From the NCBI GenBank assembly GCA_965216315.1, contig CBDCFN010000016.1, positions 1,952,001-2,016,000 of the forward strand: DNA of 64,000 bases. The letters run 5' to 3'. The notes under the pieces were generated by a model. That model saw only the letters and a program-made list of their open reading frames with translations. It was not told the DNA's origin and did no database searches. The stretch is from a bacterium. GTDB lineage: Bacteria > UBA10199 > 2-02-FULL-50-16 > JAJFLM01. Positions 28,355-38,872 of this stretch are shown one piece after another; positions within the stretch are counted from its first letter, which is position 1; every line of letters begins with the position of its first letter. Made by a program: the position numbers and the translations under genes.

Positions 28355-28661
28355 ACCCTCCTATCGGAGGACATACATAATAGTTTCATTGTTAACGTCC
28401 AGCGACGCATTTTTATGTTTAGATTATTAGACACTTCATGACGCAATAGTATAACGCCTTGATTCAACGATTCAATAATTGAATCATGCCTCAAATAATT
28501 GCTCAGGCAATATACACATCTCCCCCTGAATTCGATCCCTCAGCCGTGGCGTCTAATATTCGGAAGCTGGCAGTTACCCAGGCCGTGTCGGAGACCATAG
28601 GCGTCGAGACCTCTTGCACCTTTTGATTAGACGTCTTAGACTAAAGCCAGTTCTTTGAATT

Positions 28662-28717
28662 GGGGGCGATTTGGGTTCGACGGAATCGCCAGAAATGACG
28701 ATAGCAGGTCGAGGTTG
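28662..28717 (+). repeat. duplicated 5' end of tmRNA
   Basis: 53/56 identical to 28965-29020. Confidence 0.9.
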
Positions 28718-28964
28718 ACGTCATAGGGGCTTGCGTCGCCCCCTCCGGAAGCAAAGCTTGCGGGCCGATCGCAGAGCTCTCGGCATCTGAGGCACCAGAG
28801 GTGCTGATCCAAGCCTCCCCTTCTCGCTCGCGTTGCTCGCTAGACAACCTCGGCAAAACATATAAGGTGTTCTTTGAAACGATGAGGGATTGTTAAGGGG
28901 GAGAGAGTTTTTCTTCCCCTTAACTAGAAGCCAATCCGAAGCTGCGCTTTCGGTTGGCTGCAAT

Positions 28965-29321
28965 GGGGGCGATCCGGGTTCGACGGAATCGCCAGAAGTG
29001 ACGATAGCAGGTCGAGGTTGTCCGAACCTTGTCTAAAACGGACACAGGCTATAAACGCCGATCATGATGCGCCTTTGGCGCTTGCTGCTTAATTAAGCGG
29101 CCGTCTCTTAGGTTCTTGTCTGCGGGATTTAATGAGACGCCATTTGCAGACTGGCTCAGAGGACATTGTCTTCGAAAATCTGGGTGAGAAACTCCGAAGG
29201 CTAGCGGCCGAACCCCTGTCGATGGGGAAACTCGGTGGCGAATCACTAATCATCGACTAAGCCTGTAGCGATCGTCATGGAAGCCTTCCGGACGGGGGTT
29301 CGATTCCCCCCGCCTCCACCA
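28965..29321 (+). ncRNA. ssrA: tmRNA (357 nt), tag peptide (A)ADHDAPLALAA
   Basis: 5' GGGGGCG pairs with 3' CGCCTCC-A-CCA including the G3.U pair; T-arm GGGGGTTCGATTCCCCC; pk1 (CGAGGTT/AACCTTG, GTCCG/CGGAC); tag ORF 29057-29092 ending LAA-stop. Confidence 0.97.
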
Positions 29322-30762
29322 ATTGATAAGTGGTCGACGTTTTGCGAGCAGGGACCACGGCAAATGGTAGGAAAAGCGCAGGGTTTTGGCCGAAACGCGA
29401 AAGTTCGAGCCGATCTTTTTTAAGAATTCCTTTTGGGAGGAGTAATCGTCGCCACTCGCCAGCGGACCCGCTTGGTGAGCCGCCTGGAGGAATTCGAGGC
29501 AGGGTTCGAGCCAACCCATTGCCCCGGTCTCAAGGGCCGTCAGCTTTTCCTCTAAACGCACCTTCTGTTTCAATAATGATTCCTTCTTGGCTTGATACTC
29601 GACGCGATCGATGATGCCGTCGAGATGGGCGTCCAAGAGACGATCAAGCTTGCCCTGAATGGCCGGCATCTCCCGGTCGAATTGTTCCTTAAAGCGTGCA
29701 AGGGGTTGGCGAGAATCCTGCTGCTCCTTGGCCCACCACGCGATCATCTGTTGATAGGCGTCAGCCGGCAGAGCGACCTTTGCGATCGCGGTGCTGATTT
29801 GTTTGGCTAAGTCTTCCTCTCGGACAAAGGGCTCGGTACACGGGCCTTTCTTCTTGGTGCAGCGATAATAGTGATATTTCTTTTTCTGTCGCTCTGCCGT
29901 GATGGCGCCGTCACAATTGGCGCAACTCGCCAGGCCAAGAAAGGGAAATAAGTGCTTACGATGTTTGTGAGGCACGCCGCTCTTGGTCAGCAGACCTTGC
30001 ACCTTATCGAACAAGTCTTTCGTAATAATGGGTTCGTGGGAGCCCTGATGCCACTCGCCGGAGAACTCGAATAAGCCGTAATAGAAAGACTTGGTGAGGA
30101 TGCGATAAAGGGCGGCGTGCACAAGTGGCTTATTTTTGCGGCTCAGCAAACCCCACTCGGGCGCCATGCGCCGTAGATCCTCCACCGTATAGCGCCCCGT
30201 CGCGTAGGTCTCGAAGAGTTTCTTGATCAGGGGCGCTCGCTCGGGATCGATGACAACCTTTCGGGTCTTTTGGTCATTGTCGTAGCCCAAGGGTGCGACC
30301 CCCGGCCATTCCCCACGCCTTAACTTTTGGCGAATCCCGCGGCCGAATATTCTCCGAAAGGTTGTCCACGTAATACTTGGACTGCCCAAAGGCGATATTG
30401 AGCATAAATTTGCCTTGTGGCGTGTTTTCGAACCAAAAAGTCGGGAACTTAAGCGCCTTAATATGCTCAGTATCTAAAAAGTAAATAATCCGGCCGCCAT
30501 CGACGGAATTGCGCGCGAGTCGATCCGGGTGCCAGGCGATAATCCCTTGGGCCTCACCGCGTTCAATGCGCTCCATCATGTCATTGAAAATCGGGCGGCC
30601 GGGGACCTTGGCCGTCTTGGATTCGGTAAAAATTTCCTTAATTGTTAAACGTTCTTTTTCAGCGAAGAGTTTTAGTTCCGCGATTTGTGATTCAATTGAT
30701 AAGACCTGTCGCTCTTCGCTGTCGCTGGATTTACGGGCATAGAGAAAATACTGGGAAGACAT
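29250..30762 (-). pseudogene. large serine recombinase (resolvase + recombinase + Zn-ribbon + coiled coil) split by a 1-nt frameshift
   Basis: YARKS catalytic motif, DRLARN, CANC/C..C Zn ribbon; removing one base at ~30341 joins ORFs 30274-30828 and 29250-30389 into ...SENIRRGIRQKLRRG (503 aa). Confidence 0.88.
29316..29391 (-). repeat. att arm, copy 1 of a 76-bp perfect inverted repeat (partner 30920-30995)
   Basis: Exact reverse complement of 30920-30995 by manual alignment. Confidence 0.95.
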
Positions 30763-30919
30763 GGTCGACGTGCTATCGCCTTTGGGCACGCGTGGCAAAT
30801 TGGAAATGGCGCCTCCCCGCGAAGGCAAGTGCGATCGGCGCCCGGCGCCGTCAGGTGCCGGCCAGGCGTCGCAGGGACTTTAAATTTCCCGGAAACGAAT
30901 GGGGACTTTCGCCAGTGCA

Positions 30920-31147
30920 GGCCAAAACCCTGCGCTTTTCCTACCATTTGCCGTGGTCCCTGCTCGCAAAACGTCGACCACTTATCAATTGGTGGTGCCT
31001 GTGGACCAAAATTCGAACTTGGTTTCAAGAAAATGCGTGACCGCGAGGCCACTTGCTGCAAAAGCCGCGCCGAGCGGTCACTAAATGACTATTCCACAGG
31101 CACCTTCCCGCCACGCGCTCGTCACGGCTTGTGCAGCCCCGTGTGCC
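30920..31147 (+). repeat. internal inverted attP-like site: 76-bp arm + GTGG core + 156-bp arm
   Basis: 30920-30995 is the reverse complement of 29316-29391; 30992-31147 is the reverse complement of 36657-36812 (149/156). Confidence 0.9.
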
Positions 31148-31444
31148 TCTCGTGCCGCCGCTTGGCCCAGCGCCGAGCCCCTGGCTACACAAGGCCTGGG
31201 CATCCGCCAGCCCCCGCACATAAAGCTGCCCAGGCCGGGGACGCAGAGGGCTGGGCGGGAGGGTGTTAGCTAGTAATGGACAATTTTTCGCCACCCGGAA
31301 GCGAGGCGCTGAAAAAGTATATAGAAATGATGGAGAATTTGTTGATTAAATAGCAGGATATCATGCCATATGTAGCAATAGCATGAAGATGTACATCAGA
31401 CTTACTAAGTATTTGACTATGGCCAACCAAAATACGGGGTTGCT

Positions 31445-32173
31445 ATGACGGTTATGAGCATTTTAGCGGGTATAATCGCCCTCTTAATTCTAGTCGTATT
31501 GAGCAACATTGCCAGTGCGGTACGAGGAAACAGACAGGCCATGGAATCAGCTTGCTCAGATATCAACGATAAAATTGGTGAGCTTAATAATATCTTATAC
31601 GAAATAAAAACCGCATCAGAAGAACTACTAGATGTGATCAAGACGGTAAGTGAAACTATGTATAATATGGAAGAAAAGACTCATGAACCGATCGTTGATA
31701 TATTTGGCCCTAATAACTTCCATACAATGTCTAATGATGAAAGGGAAAGCGTCAGCAGTGAGCTAGAAAAGAAAATTTCTGAGAACAAGACTTCGCAAGA
31801 CGAATTAGAAGATTGGATCAAAAGCTGGATCATATTTTTTTCACATACGTCATATATTTACGAGATTTTATCTAAAAAGGATCTTTTGAACAATGTAAGT
31901 CCCGAAACAAAGGAATTGCTTCAAGAGCGTCATGAACAAGCTCAAATGTTTGTTAAAGTAGTTGGTGAACTGAAGAATGGCAGCGATTTAAATAAGGTAG
32001 AACAGTTTCTGGCTAATATCAAAGACCAGAAAGCTAAAAAACTGGTAGTTCGATCGGCACTATACGAAATTTATGGGAAAAAGGTTCTTCTGAATATTAA
32101 GGACATGAAGGATTTAAAGATCTTTTCTGAAGCAACAAATATACCCATTAAATTCATTTTCAACTATCTTTAA
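31445..32173 (+). CDS. hypothetical protein with N-terminal TM helix and coiled coil
   Basis: 242-aa AT-rich ORF; hydrophobic residues ~5-22 followed by heptad-like segment. Confidence 0.75.
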   Translation: MTVMSILAGIIALLILVVLSNIASAVRGNRQAMESACSDINDKIGELNNILYEIKTASEELLDVIKTVSETMYNMEEKTHEPIVDIFGPNNFHTMSNDERESVSSELEKKISENKTSQDELEDWIKSWIIFFSHTSYIYEILSKKDLLNNVSPETKELLQERHEQAQMFVKVVGELKNGSDLNKVEQFLANIKDQKAKKLVVRSALYEIYGKKVLLNIKDMKDLKIFSEATNIPIKFIFNYL

Positions 32174-32238
32174 CATCTGACGATGCACTGATATGCGCAT
32201 AATAAATATACGGTGCATTGTAGTAGATACTGTGCGCT

Positions 32239-35200
32239 TTAGTTGTATTTCTTGAATTTGCACTGCTTGGCACCAATAAGCTTTGACCTACTGTTGAGCA
32301 TAAATGCTCCGCTGATATTCAATCTTCCCAATGCACCACCACCGAGATAGCCACTGCCAAACAAGTGCTTTTCGCCGAGAAGAGTCCAAATAATTGAATA
32401 ACCATTTTTCTTAAGATAGTTGTGTAATACAGACTTATTAATAAGAATTGACCGAGGCATAGAATCACTAAAAACATTCGGGTCGAAAGCTATTAGTTTT
32501 TTACCGGCACTGTAGAAGCGGCCATCAGTATAATGTTGTCTTATTCGTAATTTATCTATTAACCATTTCGCGGGTAGCTTGACTCGGATCGATTCGCTTG
32601 TTGAACAATCAATCGATGAACCACTACTAAGATATGCGTCATCCGTTACTAATATCTTAGCAGGCATTAATTTGTCACTTGGAGCGGTCGTCCAACCTTC
32701 ATGGTGATAATATGGAATGTAATAGTATAAGAATGGATGCGCCCAAGGATACTCACCCAGGAAAACTCTATAAAACTCATGAGATTCAGGCATCCACCTA
32801 CCCATGAAATCTTGCTTCTTTGCCCATAAATAAAATTTCTTCGCATCCCTCTTCTTAACAATATAGCTCTTTATCATATACCAAATTGTTCTTGTGGGTG
32901 TCTGATATTTATCTTTCTCTGGGGCGATCTCATTTTGCCACTGAATATGACTTTCGAGCGCAAGCCAACTAACGTGATTATCATCAGATGTTTCAATAAG
33001 GCTAAGGGGATCTGGCAAATCATTTTTGCTCTTTATCCATGTCGCATCAGATGCTCTTTTCTTCCAAGATTTGTGAATAGTGGTGTGTTGGTATAGCCCT
33101 AGATTAGGAACACCTTCAGGCTTAGAGTTTGGTGGATCTTTTAATATGCAAGATGGGTCAATATCCCTAACACTCAACTGCCAGGGTCCTTGATAAGGGC
33201 CATAGCGATCGGGCCACCGTTCTATTTTAAACTCGAAATTATCTCCAATCCGTGCCAATAGCTCATGAAAAGCAATCCACTGATATTTTTTTCCTAATCT
33301 TTCAGCTTTCTGCTCTGACTGACTTACTCGATAATAATTGACGCGTCTGTCGAAATCACTGTGTAGTTCGTTTTTCAATCCAAACTGCATAACTCGATGA
33401 ACTAACCATCTCTGAGCTAATGCCGCATCAAATTCATCAAGTGAATCACTTATATTTCCATGATCATCAATATACGGCTTAAATTCTCTTTCAAAAAATG
33501 ATCTTTTTGGCTGCTGCAAAGATTCAATGAATTTTCTCCAAGCAGCTTTTCTCTCTTTATAGTATTGTTTTAGTTTTTCCTTAGTGTCACTATCATCGTT
33601 ACCATAGACAATGAGTGGAATACTCACAATGCTTGAAGGGCTTGTAATTTGTCTATATAAACGCCTTTGCTGCTTATTTAATTTTTTAATAAATTGCTGA
33701 TATTGTTCCCTCCTGCTCGCACCTCGAGACATAAGAGGTCGGCTTGACCAGCAATTAAGTGTTGAATTAAGCTCATATCGTCCAAAGTCGCCAAACATGA
33801 CAGATGACCATACTTGACGTAATGCTCCATCGTCGGCTGTACACCTTAACTTTAGTCTATCTGCAGTCGGAACTCTTTTTGGCCATTTGCTGTTATACGG
33901 AGGCGCTATTTTCTTCTTACTAACACGTAATTTAAGCTTATTCTTTAAGGCGCATTCAATAATTCCCCGTGCATAATCGCGTAATAGAATTTGTACTGGT
34001 GGCTTGTTATCCTCAAAAATACTTTTATATACCCAGCTAGCTAAGGCCTTGAGCGCCTTTTTGTCGCCTTGGGACCGCAAGGCACAACCATACGCTATAG
34101 CGTAAATCCGCTCTGCGACATACATATCATTAACATTCTGAAACCCTCTCAGTAATCTCAGTACAATATTTAAGCGATTCGTTAAAATTGCAATGAGTGC
34201 CTTTGTACTTTTGTCTCTTAAAAATCTATTAGACGTTGTTAGGAACCATGATAATGTAATTGCACATAACTCTGCAGATTCATCGCTCAAATGGGATTTA
34301 TCGTACTCGGACCAAGCCCATGTAACAAGTCGATCGACAGCTTCCTTATTGCCATATTCGTCATGCAAATATATTGACCACCACGAATCACGATTAGCCA
34401 TTGAATACTTAAATAGGTGGCCATGAAGATAATACGCATTGAATGGATGTTCTGGTATAGGTGCAACAGACAGAAAAGCATTAAGTAGTAAAGTGTGGCC
34501 TCTCTCTGATCTAATTATATGGGTATTTATGAGCCTTATTGTATTTTGAAGACTATGCGAGAAGGCAGTAGGCTTTCGCCATATAATACTTTCGATAAAA
34601 GCTTCCTCAGCAAGCTGTAATTGATAGTGACCCTTTAAGAGATAAGGGGCGACCTCTATAAATTCACTTCCTTTTAAATGCTCTGGGCACTGTATTGATA
34701 ATGTTTCAATTATGCCCCGCCCTAGAGGTTGTGAAATAAATTTACCGAGCTTTCTACGTTTTGAAAAAAATCTTTTAGCAGTATTGATATTCTTATTGCC
34801 TTTTCCAAATTCTGATTCATACTCCTTGAAAATGTACCTACCAATTAAATGATCACTAAATTTCTGAAAAGGGAATCTATATTCGAATCCACTGTCGGAA
34901 TCCCCTCCACTCGTATATTTTGGGACTTTGACTAACAATAACTGCTTTTCCAACGCGCTAATTAAAGCATTGCAATCAACCGTGGGGTATGCATTTGCAA
35001 CTATTCTGATAAGCTCTTTGTCTGTAATTCTATCTGAGCGTCGTGAAACCATATCATGAGCTATTTGCTCAATAATGGTATCCCATATGACATAGTCACC
35101 TTTTTTATTTCTGCCTTTAGGTAGTGCGAATTGCTTAACAATATTCCTGCTAGCGAATTTAATGAAATTCTCAAAAATATAAGTAGCACCTTCATGGCCT

Positions 35201-36393
35201 CGAAATACCGGCTTTTGACCAGTTGTTTTCTTTCCACTGGGCTTAGTTCGGCTTTCGTAGGCTTTGCAAAATAATAGCAAGAATAGGGGGTTGCGGAATT
35301 CTGGCGCAAGCAATGGGACTTCTGGAAGAGGCAAATTGAATTCATTGAAAAATTTGTTTACGGCCTCCCACTCACGGAATTCAAAGCCATGATGTTCAGC
35401 AAAAACAAATTGTTTCATTTGCGTATTACTGAGAGTGTCATGCTCAAAGCCTGTCCTTACACTAATAGCTAATGCAATACATGGATATCTCTTAAGCGTA
35501 TCAATGAACTTTTTAAGCTTGCGCTTCCAAATTTTCGGATGATGCGTTTCGTTCAGCGCATCTATAACTATGAGGGAGCGGACACCTGTTTCTCGTCCAG
35601 CCTGATTTAGTAATTTAAACAATCCATTAGATGTCAGCACACCTTTCAATCCGATCTGGTGTATTATTTGGTCAGCTAAATCAGCGCTATCTGTAAAATA
35701 CTCTCCAAACGTCACTACTGTTGGAAGATGTTGTTGTCTCTTGATGCGCGTTTCCACCACGTCACATAAAAGATGTGTTTTTCCAGTGCCCGCTAAACCC
35801 GTTAATAATAGAAATGGCTTATTTGATAGTTTGGCAGAAACGCTGAGCGAAAACTCTTCAAAATTCCTAATCTCTTGTTGAGTTTTATATAGATATTCTA
35901 TGTCTGCCTTAATTCGGCTCAAGTACGATTCAAGTTCAGTATTTTTCTTAGTTTCTCTTGTTTTCCTATCGATGACCGATTTTTCATCTTCTAATAGTCT
36001 AACCAGCTTTCGACACAATGGTATTGCCTTTTTGCTGCGAGAACTAATAGACGGCCACGGAATTATCCTCGTATTAAATTCTTTTATTTTACTGAGCAAT
36101 GTCAGGAGAGCTGAGACTTCTCTTTTCAAGTTTCTGTAGGCGCTATCTATCTTTTTCTTCTTATGTTTATTAGATATTCGGTTAAAGGTTCTTGAGAAAT
36201 CGCCGAAATCCTTTCTAATTGAAGTATAAAATGTTTCTGTTCTTGCTATTCCATCAAATATTTGGGCAATCGGTACTTTAATGTTTAATTTAGGCGTATA
36301 CCGAGGGCCGGCTTTCTTCAGAACTTTCTCTAGGTGAGAATGAAGCCATTTTTTGTCGAGGAAGAGATTCTTAACCATATTTCGTGAGTGCAA
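32239..36393 (-). CDS. STAND/NACHT-type ATPase, Avs2 (AVAST type 2)-like putative anti-phage protein
   Basis: Walker A GLAGTGKT (~aa 199), Walker B LIVIDALNE, NPLFL, long helical C-terminus with ERLGKKYQWIA; AT-rich island cargo; start 36393 or 36378. Confidence 0.7.
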   Translation of the reverse strand: MHSRNMVKNLFLDKKWLHSHLEKVLKKAGPRYTPKLNIKVPIAQIFDGIARTETFYTSIRKDFGDFSRTFNRISNKHKKKKIDSAYRNLKREVSALLTLLSKIKEFNTRIIPWPSISSRSKKAIPLCRKLVRLLEDEKSVIDRKTRETKKNTELESYLSRIKADIEYLYKTQQEIRNFEEFSLSVSAKLSNKPFLLLTGLAGTGKTHLLCDVVETRIKRQQHLPTVVTFGEYFTDSADLADQIIHQIGLKGVLTSNGLFKLLNQAGRETGVRSLIVIDALNETHHPKIWKRKLKKFIDTLKRYPCIALAISVRTGFEHDTLSNTQMKQFVFAEHHGFEFREWEAVNKFFNEFNLPLPEVPLLAPEFRNPLFLLLFCKAYESRTKPSGKKTTGQKPVFRGHEGATYIFENFIKFASRNIVKQFALPKGRNKKGDYVIWDTIIEQIAHDMVSRRSDRITDKELIRIVANAYPTVDCNALISALEKQLLLVKVPKYTSGGDSDSGFEYRFPFQKFSDHLIGRYIFKEYESEFGKGNKNINTAKRFFSKRRKLGKFISQPLGRGIIETLSIQCPEHLKGSEFIEVAPYLLKGHYQLQLAEEAFIESIIWRKPTAFSHSLQNTIRLINTHIIRSERGHTLLLNAFLSVAPIPEHPFNAYYLHGHLFKYSMANRDSWWSIYLHDEYGNKEAVDRLVTWAWSEYDKSHLSDESAELCAITLSWFLTTSNRFLRDKSTKALIAILTNRLNIVLRLLRGFQNVNDMYVAERIYAIAYGCALRSQGDKKALKALASWVYKSIFEDNKPPVQILLRDYARGIIECALKNKLKLRVSKKKIAPPYNSKWPKRVPTADRLKLRCTADDGALRQVWSSVMFGDFGRYELNSTLNCWSSRPLMSRGASRREQYQQFIKKLNKQQRRLYRQITSPSSIVSIPLIVYGNDDSDTKEKLKQYYKERKAAWRKFIESLQQPKRSFFEREFKPYIDDHGNISDSLDEFDAALAQRWLVHRVMQFGLKNELHSDFDRRVNYYRVSQSEQKAERLGKKYQWIAFHELLARIGDNFEFKIERWPDRYGPYQGPWQLSVRDIDPSCILKDPPNSKPEGVPNLGLYQHTTIHKSWKKRASDATWIKSKNDLPDPLSLIETSDDNHVSWLALESHIQWQNEIAPEKDKYQTPTRTIWYMIKSYIVKKRDAKKFYLWAKKQDFMGRWMPESHEFYRVFLGEYPWAHPFLYYYIPYYHHEGWTTAPSDKLMPAKILVTDDAYLSSGSSIDCSTSESIRVKLPAKWLIDKLRIRQHYTDGRFYSAGKKLIAFDPNVFSDSMPRSILINKSVLHNYLKKNGYSIIWTLLGEKHLFGSGYLGGGALGRLNISGAFMLNSRSKLIGAKQCKFKKYN

Positions 36394-36656
36394 GAGTATA
36401 TTTTAATCATACCGAACAACAGGGAAAACATTTATCCAATGTAGTGCTTGCCGCGGGCCCGATTCGGGGGTGCGGGGGGAGAAGCGGGCCCGCGGCCCCG
36501 GCTTCAAGTGGCGTCTTTCAATCTATGGCGAGGCCTGGAGTCAAGCGACGGCCCACTGGGACCGTGGGCGGTGCAGGCCGAATGCCTGAGCGCCCGGCCT
36601 GCGTAGCCTTGGCGAAGCAGGCTAGCGAAGGCATGAGGCTTGCTCAGCCAATTTAG

Positions 36657-36812
36657 GGCACGCGGGGCTGCACAAGCCGTGACGAGCGCGTGGCGGGAAG
36701 GTGCCTGTGGACGAGGCATTTAGTGACCGCTCGGCGCGGCTTTTGCAGCAAGTGGCCTCGTGGTCACGAATTTTCTTGAAACCAAGTTCGAATTTTGATC
36801 CACAGGCACCAC
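36657..36812 (-). repeat. att arm, copy 2 of the 156-bp inverted repeat (partner 30992-31147)
   Basis: 149/156 identity to 30992-31147 in reverse complement. Confidence 0.93.
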
Positions 36813-37207
36813 AAAATTTGCGCAGCCAATTTTGTCCCTATATTCCATATACGATATGCGCCATGGCGCAAATTTTCGTATATAGAATATCGTATAGGGT
36901 ATATGGGGACTTATTGCTGACTTTGAATCAACAAAGTAACAATATAATCCTGCGATTGCCTGCTTTCCAATATGGAAGATAAACATAAACAATATCTCGA
37001 ACGTATGTATCCGTTACGGAGCACTAAAAGATAATAATACAAAGATGGGAGATATTGTCCGTATATATCACAAAAATGTTAGTGAGCCCACAAAAGACAG
37101 AAATCGAATAACAGAATAGATATTCAATTAACCTATGATCATGCGGGCCGTATGATATCAGGGATGTGATTCGCAGGCGAGTTAACCAGCGGACTCACAT
37201 CTGGGGG

Positions 37208-37519
37208 TCAGTAGGCTTTTGAAGCTGCCTCTTGCTCTCTAATACGTGTAGTCATAATGTTATTCAAGAGCATTTTATCCTGCTTCTGTAGATCCGGAAA
37301 TCTTAGCTTCATTCTCATTTCATTAAGAGTCTTTTTATCTCTCTTCATTAGCAATCCGATAGCTTCATCAAAAAACGAAACGGAACCAACTAATTTTCCG
37401 CCAAACTGTATCTCGATTCTTGGCTGATCCCAATTGTCATTAATCAGAGTTCGTATCTTTTTTCCAGCTTCACGAGAAATGATATCTTCACCGCAAATTT
37501 CTGGGACATTAATTATCAT
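37208..37519 (-). CDS. STAS-like (DUF4325-type) small protein
   Basis: 103 aa from ATG 37519; SREAGKKIR and SVSFFDEAIG motifs; overlaps upstream stop. Confidence 0.75.
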   Translation of the reverse strand: MIINVPEICGEDIISREAGKKIRTLINDNWDQPRIEIQFGGKLVGSVSFFDEAIGLLMKRDKKTLNEMRMKLRFPDLQKQDKMLLNNIMTTRIREQEAASKAY

Positions 37520-38390
37520 TGAAAATTCCTTCTTCTTCTCTGAGAATATCATAATAACTTTCACCATCTAAATTAATCTGAAAATCTACGCACGTTCCCA
37601 TAAACGATTTTTGAGCTTTTTTGTAATCGTATTCGCTGCGATCATATTTCAGTGCAATTTTTGCCTTGCCTGAAAAAATGTATAGTCTTCCTGAATTGTG
37701 TCTGAGAGCTTCTTGTATTATTTGATAGCCTCGACCACCTTCTATTTCATCTCTTGTTGTTAAGCTTTCTTTCAATAGGCGCTGGATTGCATCCTTGTCA
37801 GTTCCTAAGTCCTCATATCGCGTACGTAGTTTATATGGTATTCCAACTCCAAAATCTAAAAAAGCTATGTGCATGTTATGAGATCGTCCCCAAGAACCAA
37901 CGCAGGCATAACAAGTACGCTCTCCACTATGGTCTAATGTATTTGTGAGTAACTCTGTAAGAATGAGTCGTGCCATATCTTTGAGGTCTGGGGTGAATCT
38001 AGGAGCGTTCGCGGCTATTATAGCAAGCATGTCATCTAGAGACATAGTATTGTAACTGTCGAGCCTCCGAAGTTGGCACATCTTCTCAGTTACCATAATG
38101 CTTTGAGGGCCATCTGGTTTACTAAGATACCTTATAGCCCGCAATGCATTTTGGGCGCGCCTGGCCGAAGGCAAAGTTATTCTTATTTTATTGTTTCTGC
38201 CCCACGCTAAATCTGTCAGGCCACATAAGAAACATACGGAAAGTGCGCTAACTTCAGTAGTTCTCTTGAGGTCGAAGTGAACTATTGAATTTTCTATGCC
38301 GCGCACTTTACGGACTGCCGCCAATAAGGAATCAATGTAGGCCACCGTCAGCTGTTTGGGGAAAGGAATGTCGATAGTGCCGGGGATCAT
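37509..38390 (-). CDS. STAS-like + GHKL/HATPase (anti-sigma-kinase-like) protein
   Basis: ELLTNTLDHS (N box), DFGVGI (G1), GGRGY (G2), GT (G3); N-terminal FDL...SALS STAS-like segment. Confidence 0.78.
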   Translation of the reverse strand: MIPGTIDIPFPKQLTVAYIDSLLAAVRKVRGIENSIVHFDLKRTTEVSALSVCFLCGLTDLAWGRNNKIRITLPSARRAQNALRAIRYLSKPDGPQSIMVTEKMCQLRRLDSYNTMSLDDMLAIIAANAPRFTPDLKDMARLILTELLTNTLDHSGERTCYACVGSWGRSHNMHIAFLDFGVGIPYKLRTRYEDLGTDKDAIQRLLKESLTTRDEIEGGRGYQIIQEALRHNSGRLYIFSGKAKIALKYDRSEYDYKKAQKSFMGTCVDFQINLDGESYYDILREEEGIFNDN

Positions 38391-38762
38391 AGATGTAACC
38401 TACTGAAATATATAGACTATGTAAATCAATAATTGCAGATAATTATATATAACATCATAATAGGTGTTTAAATTCATATACTTATGAATAATTTAAATCC
38501 CCGGCATCAAGGGGGCTGGCATCATGAGCTGCGCTTCTATCAATCAGCCTGGCAAGCGGAAGTAATATCGTTTCAGAAGCCATAGTAGTTGAAGTTACGG
38601 CACTCCCACGGCACTGGCTAATTTTTTCTTGAGTAATTTCTTTTGCTTACGCCGATCCGCGGAGGATTCGACGAGCCTTTCGCAGAAGGCGAAAATTTCC
38701 ACCGTGCGATTGCCAAAATAGGCAATCGCATCCTCACGAAGCGGTGAGGACGAGCAAATCCC

Positions 38763-38778
38763 CCCCCCACCTCCACTA
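38763..38778 (+). repeat. degenerate direct repeat of the tmRNA 3' end
   Basis: CCCCCCACCTCCACTA vs CCCCCCGCCTCCACCA at 29306-29321 (14/16); coincides with the end of the island-like region. Confidence 0.55.
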
Positions 38779-38786
38779 TTCAGTGT

Positions 38787-38872
38787 GCGTCCAAGAGGCG
38801 ATCCAACTTGCCTTGAATGGTCGGCATCTCCCGGTCGAATTATTATTTAATGCGTGCGGCAAGGGATTGGCG
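38787..38872 (-). pseudogene. relic of a second, related serine recombinase gene
   Basis: 38787-38857 is 62/71 identical to 29629-29699; translates K**FDREMPTIQGKLDRLLDAH vs KEQFDREMPAIQGKLDRLLDAH. Confidence 0.88.

Follow-up and report, generated by a model that had tools for sequence, protein, structure and literature searches.

Attachment sites that lie within a gene of the mobile element, so that integration alters the product of that gene, have been described in two groups with tyrosine integrases. In the SSV1-type archaeal integrases attP is inside the int gene, which is split by integration, and in the integration-dependent immunity of mycobacteriophages the repressor loses a C-terminal tag on integration. 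This feature is shared by the element analysed here, which occupies 7,493 bp at the transfer-messenger RNA (tmRNA) gene of a bacterium of the lineage UBA10199 (assembly GCA_965216315.1, contig CBDCFN010000016.1), in a stretch of 64,000 nucleotides that we refer to as the window. Unlike in the SSV1 and mycobacteriophage systems, it is a large serine recombinase (LSR) that loses a tail of about 14 residues here, and the element keeps an intact inverted copy of the gene end; to our knowledge, nothing comparable to this second copy is retained in either of those systems.

A DNA segment between two inverted recombination sites, next to a recombinase gene, is also characteristic of the small serine invertases Hin and Gin and of the Rci shufflon (a tyrosine recombinase), which use identical short inverted sites and occur in both orientations in populations. 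The present element differs from these in its LSR, in having two distinct pairs of arms and attL/attP/attR hybrid sites, and in the constant orientation found in its relatives. In the yeast 2-micron plasmid the FLP/FRT inverted repeats split the circle into two arcs, and the circle isomerises. An excised circle of the present element would likewise have two inverted recombination sites and two arcs, but the element has no replication functions, its recombinase is of another class, and there is no sign of isomerisation here.

The phage-type large serine integrases (Listeria A118/LI, phiC31, Bxb1 and SPbeta SprA) have the same set of Resolvase, Recombinase and zinc-ribbon domains as the LSR of the window, among whose distant sequence matches are 4KIS (A118) and 9DXH (SprA). 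The element also resembles them in its short sites, its tiny common core and a 5-bp shift of the outer motif between attP and attB, as given in the accessible text of PMC3783163. Unlike them, it is targeted to the CCA end of tRNA or tmRNA genes, retains a second, inverted attP, has an LSR open reading frame (ORF) that crosses attP, has no recognisable conserved directionality-factor gene in the cargo of 20 relatives, and belongs to a family with hardly any members in viral contigs (3 loci). According to a 2014 database paper (PMC4383910), no targeting of tRNA genes was known for serine-family integrases. The Prochlorococcus tycheposons are islands at tRNA and tmRNA genes, of which 910 of 937 have a tyrosine recombinase and a minority an LSR; many carry replication genes, whereas none were found in the elements described here, and the part of that report available to us makes no mention of an internal inverted attachment site (bioRxiv 10.1101/2020.12.28.424599). 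A serine-integrase island with an inverted internal attP is apparently undescribed: the initial annotation of the window had named no such system, and a full-text literature search (supplements outside its scope) found no description of one.

We consider it on balance probable that the window holds an integrated member of a large and apparently undescribed family of small islands, the LSR of which targets the 3′ CCA end of tRNA and tmRNA genes, and that the spare attP is for mobility and is not a switch for the cargo.

Three Attachment Sites with a Common Core

The element contains two pairs of inverted repeats, a and b (Table 1), and the coordinates and match counts that the initial annotation gave for them were exact. 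The b arms differ at positions 36662, 36712, 36713, 36716, 36761, 36769 and 36798, and a repeat search returns the a and b pairs slightly extended (85 nt and 159 nt at 95%). The number of perfect 76-nt inverted repeats expected by chance in 64 kb is about 4e-37; as this is the expectation for the shorter repeat, a chance origin of the repeats is excluded. The inner a and inner b copies meet in a shared GTGG, and CCAC is present in both outer copies. Read toward the core, attL is tmRNA...CCGCCT-CCAC-CAATTG..., the middle site (on the other strand) is ...CAGGCA-CCAC-CAATTG..., and attR is ...CAGGCA-CCAC-AAAATT.... These sequences are as left by recombination of attP with attB at a CCAC core, together with one intact attP turned round. 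The order of the element is attL – LSR gene – complete inverted attP – cargo (a transmembrane protein and Avs2) – attR, and the earlier assignment of the three sites, all of which have the CCAC core, is supported. Short att sites that share few bases at the crossover are a trait of large serine recombinases, as is found here for the CCAC core, and the left att site is within the final bases (the CCA end) of a full-length tmRNA gene. The alternative in which each bracketed module is an independent terminal-repeat transposon was ruled out, because one 4-bp core alternates in orientation over the three sites.

The read-level evidence consisted of Logan contigs from two public runs of a single study, with several bins uncovered. 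One contig of run X2 (depth 9.5) was found to link position 29315 to 36809, with 7,493 nt skipped and a 4-nt overlap, which matches the earlier proposal that recombination between the outer sites would excise a 7.5-kb element. This joint is a presence/absence polymorphism with exact boundaries, excision itself being beyond its reach, and the 7,493 bp look like one discrete unit. In the same run the depth of the element contigs was 2 to 4.7 and that of the flank 6 to 9.5. The middle site is crossed as in the window by public-run contigs of 562 nt and 182 nt, which may share samples with the assembly. Two genomes of the same family have the tmRNA gene and no LSR beside it.

A variant tmRNA with 13 differing positions (depth 8.6) was seen in the contigs of run X2 and also on assembly contig C2 (2,222 bp), where this second copy (positions 1–354) is 96% identical and the contig edge falls 7 nt before the gene end, which is the integration site. 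The copy on contig C2 is probably from a sister strain binned into the same assembly. A contig joint that “goes back 7472” is accounted for by the 84% repeat at 38784, beyond the stretch with which the contigs were compared.

Table 1. Positions in the window of the tmRNA target, the attachment sites with their arms, and the genes of the element.
Feature	Position	Strand	Evidence
tmRNA gene, target of integration, with the crossover core in its CCA end	28965..29321	+	ARAGORN; Rfam RF00023, 170.4 bits, E 2.5e-68, full length
LSR gene with one-base frameshift near 30340; ORF passes through the a arm into antisense tmRNA	29250..30828	-	Pfam, translations
attL core CCAC (tmRNA side / a arm)	29316..29319	+	sequence; 4-nt overlap at empty-site joint
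a arm, outer copy	29316..29391	+	76/76 to inverted copy
Whole integrated element, 7,493 bp; boundary slides by the 4-nt core	29320..36812	.	empty-site joint
a arm, inner inverted copy (spare of LSR gene 3′ end)	30920..30995	-	repeat pair
Core of internal inverted attP, GTGG on + strand	30992..30995	-	sequence
Inner copy of the b arm (P arm), with the native recombinase tail and the TTCGA motif (17 nt from core)	30992..31147	-	
Cargo gene 1: 242 aa, hydrophobic N-terminus	31445..32173	+	ORF; no Pfam or PADLOC match
Cargo gene 2: Avs2-type STAND NTPase, 1384 aa	32239..36393	-	PADLOC, Pfam AAA_22/STAND
b arm, outer copy, the P arm in attR	36657..36812	+	149/156 to inner copy
attR core CCAC (b arm / chromosomal flank)	36809..36812	+	joint 29315->36809

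Mimicry of the tRNA T-Loop in the Left Arm of attP

The motif TTCGR in the P arm (b) copies the T-loop motif of tRNAs, GTTCRA. Both motifs were present in 27 of the 38 loci analysed, and in 25 of these the distance from the core is greater by exactly 5 bp for the b-arm motif than for the true T-loop; in the two exceptions a second TTCGR nearer the core is also at +5, by reading of the printed sequences. In a control with random 45-mers the +5 offset occurred 16 times in 6400. The corresponding distances from the core in the window are 17 nt in the P arm and 12 nt in the tmRNA. For the LI integrase, the zinc-ribbon motif in attB compared to attP is “shifted by 5 bp toward the center” (PMC3783163, accessible text), and the left arms of the window conform to such a position of the outer zinc-ribbon motif, closer to the centre by 5 bp in attB. 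Because the offset matches the LI integrase rule, the three sites are taken as a genuine attL, attP and attR. The constant 5-bp offset also ruled out a reading in which the tRNA side and the b arm are equivalent half-sites and attL is attP-like.

The b arm contains a perfect 12-bp inverted repeat (GGTGCCTGTGGA / TCCACAGGCACC, at 36700–36711 and 36799–36810), present in the inner copy too, which encloses a T-arm-like hairpin, and a terminator-like hairpin in the b arm points toward the core. The fold z-score of the b arm (−4.4) is due to this internal 12-bp repeat, and the b arm was rejected as an RNA gene, the tmRNA being the only Rfam match at E ≤ 0.1 and ARAGORN giving no tRNA.

The Recombinase Gene and Its C-Terminal Tail

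Pfam places the Resolvase domain (PF00239, E 1.8e-17) in the ORF 30274–30828, and the Recombinase (PF07508, E 1.3e-12) and Zn_ribbon_recom (PF13408, E 2.3e-10) domains in the ORF 29250–30389. This order of resolvase catalytic domain, Recombinase domain and zinc ribbon is that of a large serine recombinase, in a gene split by a frameshift: a one-base shift near 30340 separates the reading frames of the two ORFs, and their translations bear out the frameshifted recombinase that had been noted before. The gene starts at about 30762, and homologues have 480 to 520 aa. Where contigs of the two public runs cover the LSR gene they have no indel relative to the window, their independence from the assembly being uncertain. 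It is the sole gene of its family in the 2.96-Mb genome and, judged from its reading frames, the frameshifted copy cannot act and would be immobile on its own.

The reading frame of the LSR crosses attP, the Trp codon at the junction being the complement of CCA. On the minus strand the outer a arm encodes the last 25 or so conserved codons of the gene (translation ...AKTLRFSYHLPWSLLAKRRPLINWW), and the LSR ORF ends inside antisense tmRNA (...NWWRRGESNPRP...). At the inner a-arm copy, the ORF 30642..31040 ends ...AKTLRFSYHLPWSLLAKRRPLINWWCLWTKIRTWFQENA, and the native tail of the window, read through the intact inner copy, is NWWCLWTKIRTWFQENA. In its free form the element thus codes for a conserved C-terminal tail (CLWTKIRTWFQENA in this case), which integration replaces by antisense-tmRNA residues.

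Among 66 elements whose inner copy was read through in the same way, 39 have the native-tail motif [IVLAF]R[TVIMS]x[FLY], and the window agrees with the family tail pattern W-x6-[IV]-R-T-x-[FL] across the core in the P arm. Reading through attL instead gives an antisense-tRNA tail, for example RRGESNPRP. The tail is of the antisense-tRNA type in 53 of the 104 database homologues with at least 430 aa and native in 9, of which 7 were recognised by the pattern and two (P0040 and P0112) by eye among the rows left unclassified. The others were not assigned to either type, and in many of these the protein stops no more than a few residues away from the Trp.

The Same Layout in Related Elements

A homologue search gave 980 proteins at E ≤ 1e-10, the best with 62–63% identity. 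We analysed 115 loci, namely 80 from species-representative (GTDB) genomes and 35 of 47 Joint Genome Institute (JGI) metagenome loci, the other 12 (L141, L144, L153, L156–L164) being left out as partial matches; the metagenome scan gave no relative above 42% identity. Among loci with enough flank, an inverted repeat brackets the LSR gene in 35 of 43 from genomes and 16 of 17 from metagenomes, or 51 of 60 in total. The search of homologous loci for the same internal inverted attP, which had been proposed as a check, thus found the layout to be a hallmark of a large family, not unique to the window locus. A second pair abutting the inner copy was found in 18 of 25 genome loci and 1 of 3 metagenome loci with at least 3 kb further upstream, counts that are lower bounds since the locus would be too short for a larger cargo.

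Where 150 nt or more were available downstream, an antisense tRNA was found at the 3′ end of the LSR gene in 47 of 65 genome loci and in all 25 metagenome loci. An LSR gene that converges on, and reads into, a tRNA-type 3′ end is a trait shared by the window and its relatives. In two of the tRNA “misses” (L044, 1799–2072, and L059, 11100–11373, Patescibacteria) the target tRNA has a group I intron, because of which it was missed by ARAGORN; the element is still at a tRNA 3′ end in both.

The median length of the a arms is 96 nt; of 77 a pairs, 71 have an identity of at least 95%, and in 23 the identity is 100%. Arm lengths in the family range from 76 to 413 bp and cargo lengths from 0.8 to 8.4 kb, and the two inner arms overlap by 3–11 bp in 20 of 22 elements. 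The core of the spare site is complete and matches each element’s own tRNA target, and its arms are far longer than an integrase half-site. An LSR ORF of at least 450 aa is present in 50 of the 51 loci with an a pair and in 5 of the 9 without one; loss of the spare site accompanies decay of the LSR. We also asked if the a arms are better preserved than the b arms, and this was not so (11 versus 7, with 3 equal).

The hosts, by database record, are mostly Patescibacteria, and also Bdellovibrio, Nitrospirota, Gammaproteobacteria, Omnitrophota and others, and among 2.9 million viral contigs only 3 distant relatives were found. The cargo of 20 relatives is mainly defence (restriction-modification with a controller-type helix-turn-helix protein, Mrr, an OLD/PIF1 pair and a Z1/DUF4420 set), with metabolic genes in a few. 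No candidate for a conserved directionality factor, on which unidirectional serine integrases depend for excision, was seen in the cargo of these 20, and no replication genes in the cargo examined.

At least three abutting inverted-repeat brackets in a row were seen in L113 (3176–4939), L037 (4410–9385) and L041 (7445–9726). The third bracket of L113, of about 1.5 kb, is of the size of a recombinase module, which suggests that successive elements are stacked at one tRNA gene. A LOOT RNA (RF03000, 76 bits) is located at 2655–2776 of L113, a few hundred bases past the stacked elements.

Cargo and Neighbouring Remnants

The earlier assignment of an Avs2-like ATPase to the cargo was corroborated by PADLOC, which identified cargo gene 2 as Avs2 (PDLC02164, E = 0, 1287 bits, residues 10–1382 on profile positions 169–1498 of 1504); five more Avs2 profiles match this gene. 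The best profile aligned only from position 169, so that its N-terminal effector domain appears to be missing or replaced; a second profile was covered from position 33, and Pfam names no effector domain. The two cargo genes are convergent and wholly within the cassette, each with its own upstream region, and the 242-aa membrane protein could be a partner of Avs2. The guanine + cytosine (GC) fraction is 0.40 in the cargo, 0.54 in the LSR module and 0.49 in the window.

Upstream of the target gene, the first 57 nt of the tmRNA are duplicated 303 nt away with 95% identity (window 28661–28960). Between the two copies of the tmRNA start is a stretch of about 245 nt made up of short repeats, which occur dozens of times on contigs C15 and C16; the stretch looks like an insertion of the type of a miniature inverted-repeat transposable element, and it is absent from the variant locus on contig C2.

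Past attR, positions 36813–38872 are AT-rich (GC 0.39) and contain two minus-strand genes of 119 aa and 293 aa, the latter with weak HATPase_c and DrmA-like matches. A second recombinase 3′ remnant at 38780–38872 has 84% nucleotide identity to 29626–29711 and is cut off by the end of a 2102-aa DUF4215-repeat gene. The features of 36813–38872 have the appearance of older islands, now decayed, in a stack at this tmRNA gene. Elsewhere, on contig C16 (2138771–2138832; locus L004, 1501–1562), a 62-nt fragment is 87% identical to the b arm, in the attR orientation and about 530 nt downstream of the 3′ end of a tRNA-Gln(ctg) gene. It is probably a relic of a related element at another tRNA gene.

Role of the Internal Inverted Attachment Site

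Integration at the tmRNA end produced attL, where the tmRNA meets the a arm, and attR, where the b arm meets the flank, the two having a 4-bp core in common. A complete second attP (b-core-a) is kept inverted between the LSR gene and the cargo, as in most of the relatives. The spare site would preserve an intact copy of the 3′ end of the LSR gene as well as of the site, and its most likely function is in mobility. The LSR module could be turned if the long identical a arms recombined, either homologously or through the LSR. In a turned module the full-length LSR gene would be rebuilt and would read with the tmRNA promoter instead of against it, so that the element would be re-armed, the observed orientation being presumably the stable, disarmed state. 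That the spare gene end and site do let a-arm recombination rebuild a full-length LSR gene under the tmRNA promoter is a serious possibility, which we nevertheless put well below an even chance. The spare site does not appear to be a mere relic because it has a full matching core, has long arms, and is lost along with LSR decay.

A broader and still more tentative proposal, which we think has a limited chance of being right, is that the spare inverted attP and the long identical arms are a self-contained mobility switch that replaces a directionality factor. Integration would disarm the LSR both by loss of its tail and by setting the gene against tRNA or tmRNA transcription, and rare arm recombination would turn the gene, restore the tail from the spare copy and place the gene behind a strong tRNA-type promoter, upon which the island could leave. 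If the family reads the universal tRNA T-loop as its zinc-ribbon motif, this would explain the many tRNA and tmRNA targets across phyla.

Several results weigh against the interpretation that the spare attP is for mobility. None of the 115 loci is flipped, with an intact LSR gene co-directional with the tRNA. Native tails in chromosomal contigs were found only at L076 and L052, and as the ORFs of both are short at the N terminus, the armed state was never seen intact. The spare site is absent from 9 of the 60 evaluable loci. The tail Arg codon is CGA in 31 of 39 elements and lies inside the T-loop mimic, so that constraint on the tail as protein is inseparable from constraint on it as DNA. An AlphaFold2 model of an intact relative with a native tail (P0010; mean predicted local distance difference test score 76) was unreliable over about the last 70 residues, with residues 451–464 and 473–519 below 50, and was uninformative on the tail. 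The right arm of attP (the a arm) has no consistent motif, the positions of mirror-image motifs varying between loci. The tmRNA side of the empty-site contig is only 26 nt long, and this contig may be from a sister strain that never had the element. The contigs of the two runs, which have low power in this respect, also contain no strand-changing joint.

The best-surviving alternative, which we regard as unlikely yet worth keeping in view, is that the internal attP is a regulatory or insulating binding site for the LSR between divergent promoters, with a terminator in the b arm, and is never recombined. In Tn3 the recombinase binding site res is similarly located between divergent promoters. 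The site is indeed between the LSR start and the cargo, cargo operons of relatives diverge from the middle site, the b-arm hairpin has its terminator-like orientation toward the core, and a promoter-like site at 31345–31316 reads toward the LSR. However, an operator would require neither near-identical arms of 76–413 bp nor a full core with the same sequence as the tRNA end, and a promoter and terminator scan gave results at or near the shuffle level (5 versus 2.2 and 3 versus 4.2).

In the model of the initial annotation, the middle site would be a regular partner of each outer site in LSR recombination, so that there are two invertible cassettes and a flip of the cargo phase-varies Avs2. The sites are indeed mutually inverted with a shared core, the arms are long and near-identical, and contigs of many relatives end at the arms, but contig breaks are expected anyway at repeats longer than the assembler’s word. 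The left × middle and middle × right flips do not agree with the P-type and B-type geometry observed, which is that of unidirectional integrases without attP × attL or attP × attR recombination; such integrases do not recombine “other pairings of attachment sites” according to the accessible text of PMC3783163. Both orientations of a segment were not seen across the 115 loci apart from the two decayed ones (L076, L052): the LSR converges on the tRNA at the frequencies given above, no locus has a tRNA at the arm 5′ of the gene, an HTH_3 controller gene of the cargo is beside the middle site in 6 of 6 loci, and 50 of 60 cargo ORFs point away from that site. As the upstream regions of the cargo genes are inside the cassette, a flip would not obviously disconnect a promoter, and only the 3′ end of the LSR gene itself would change. 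The LSR of the window is frameshifted, and the check for alternative orientations that had been suggested was carried out on the contigs of the two runs, where no inversion joint was found, a result of low power that is silent on rare isomers. A phase-variation switch for the defence cassette is therefore not supported, and we consider it improbable.

About as doubtful is the idea that the two inverted attPs act in the excised circle, either of them docking to attB or the circle isomerising, with only the LSR-truncating integrant being stable and hence observed. By geometry, a circle excised at the outer sites would contain two inverted attPs; the native tails of 9 of 104 homologues mean that attP-type junctions beside the gene exist in assemblies, and one is found at L076, in a contig of 76 kb. 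However, no circle was recovered, the viral contigs contained only the 3 relatives mentioned, the cargo examined is without replication genes, and native-tail ORFs may be assembly paths through identical arms.

That the inner copy is a misassembly or a meaningless one-off rearrangement has a negligible chance, for although the window is from a metagenome-type assembly of 16 contigs, the middle site reads the same in contigs of both runs that cross it, the 7 differences between the b arms show that these are not collapsed copies, and the layout recurs at the frequency given above in unrelated assemblies, including a record labelled as a complete chromosome (L059) and a 771-kb contig (L085).

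Implications for the Host and the Family

For the genome of the window the message is modest: it has a disabled island at its tmRNA gene, polymorphic in the population and stacked on older remnants. For the family, the 5-bp offset offers a concrete and testable rule by which attP and attB would be discriminated, and the T-loop mimic may explain retargeting to different tRNA genes, which is relevant to integrase engineering. If the layout is functional, it would be a new form of self-control of direction by a serine integrase element without a separate excision factor, and the family would be a widespread vehicle in small-genome bacteria for defence genes such as restriction-modification, Gabija-like and Mrr systems and, in the window, Avs2.

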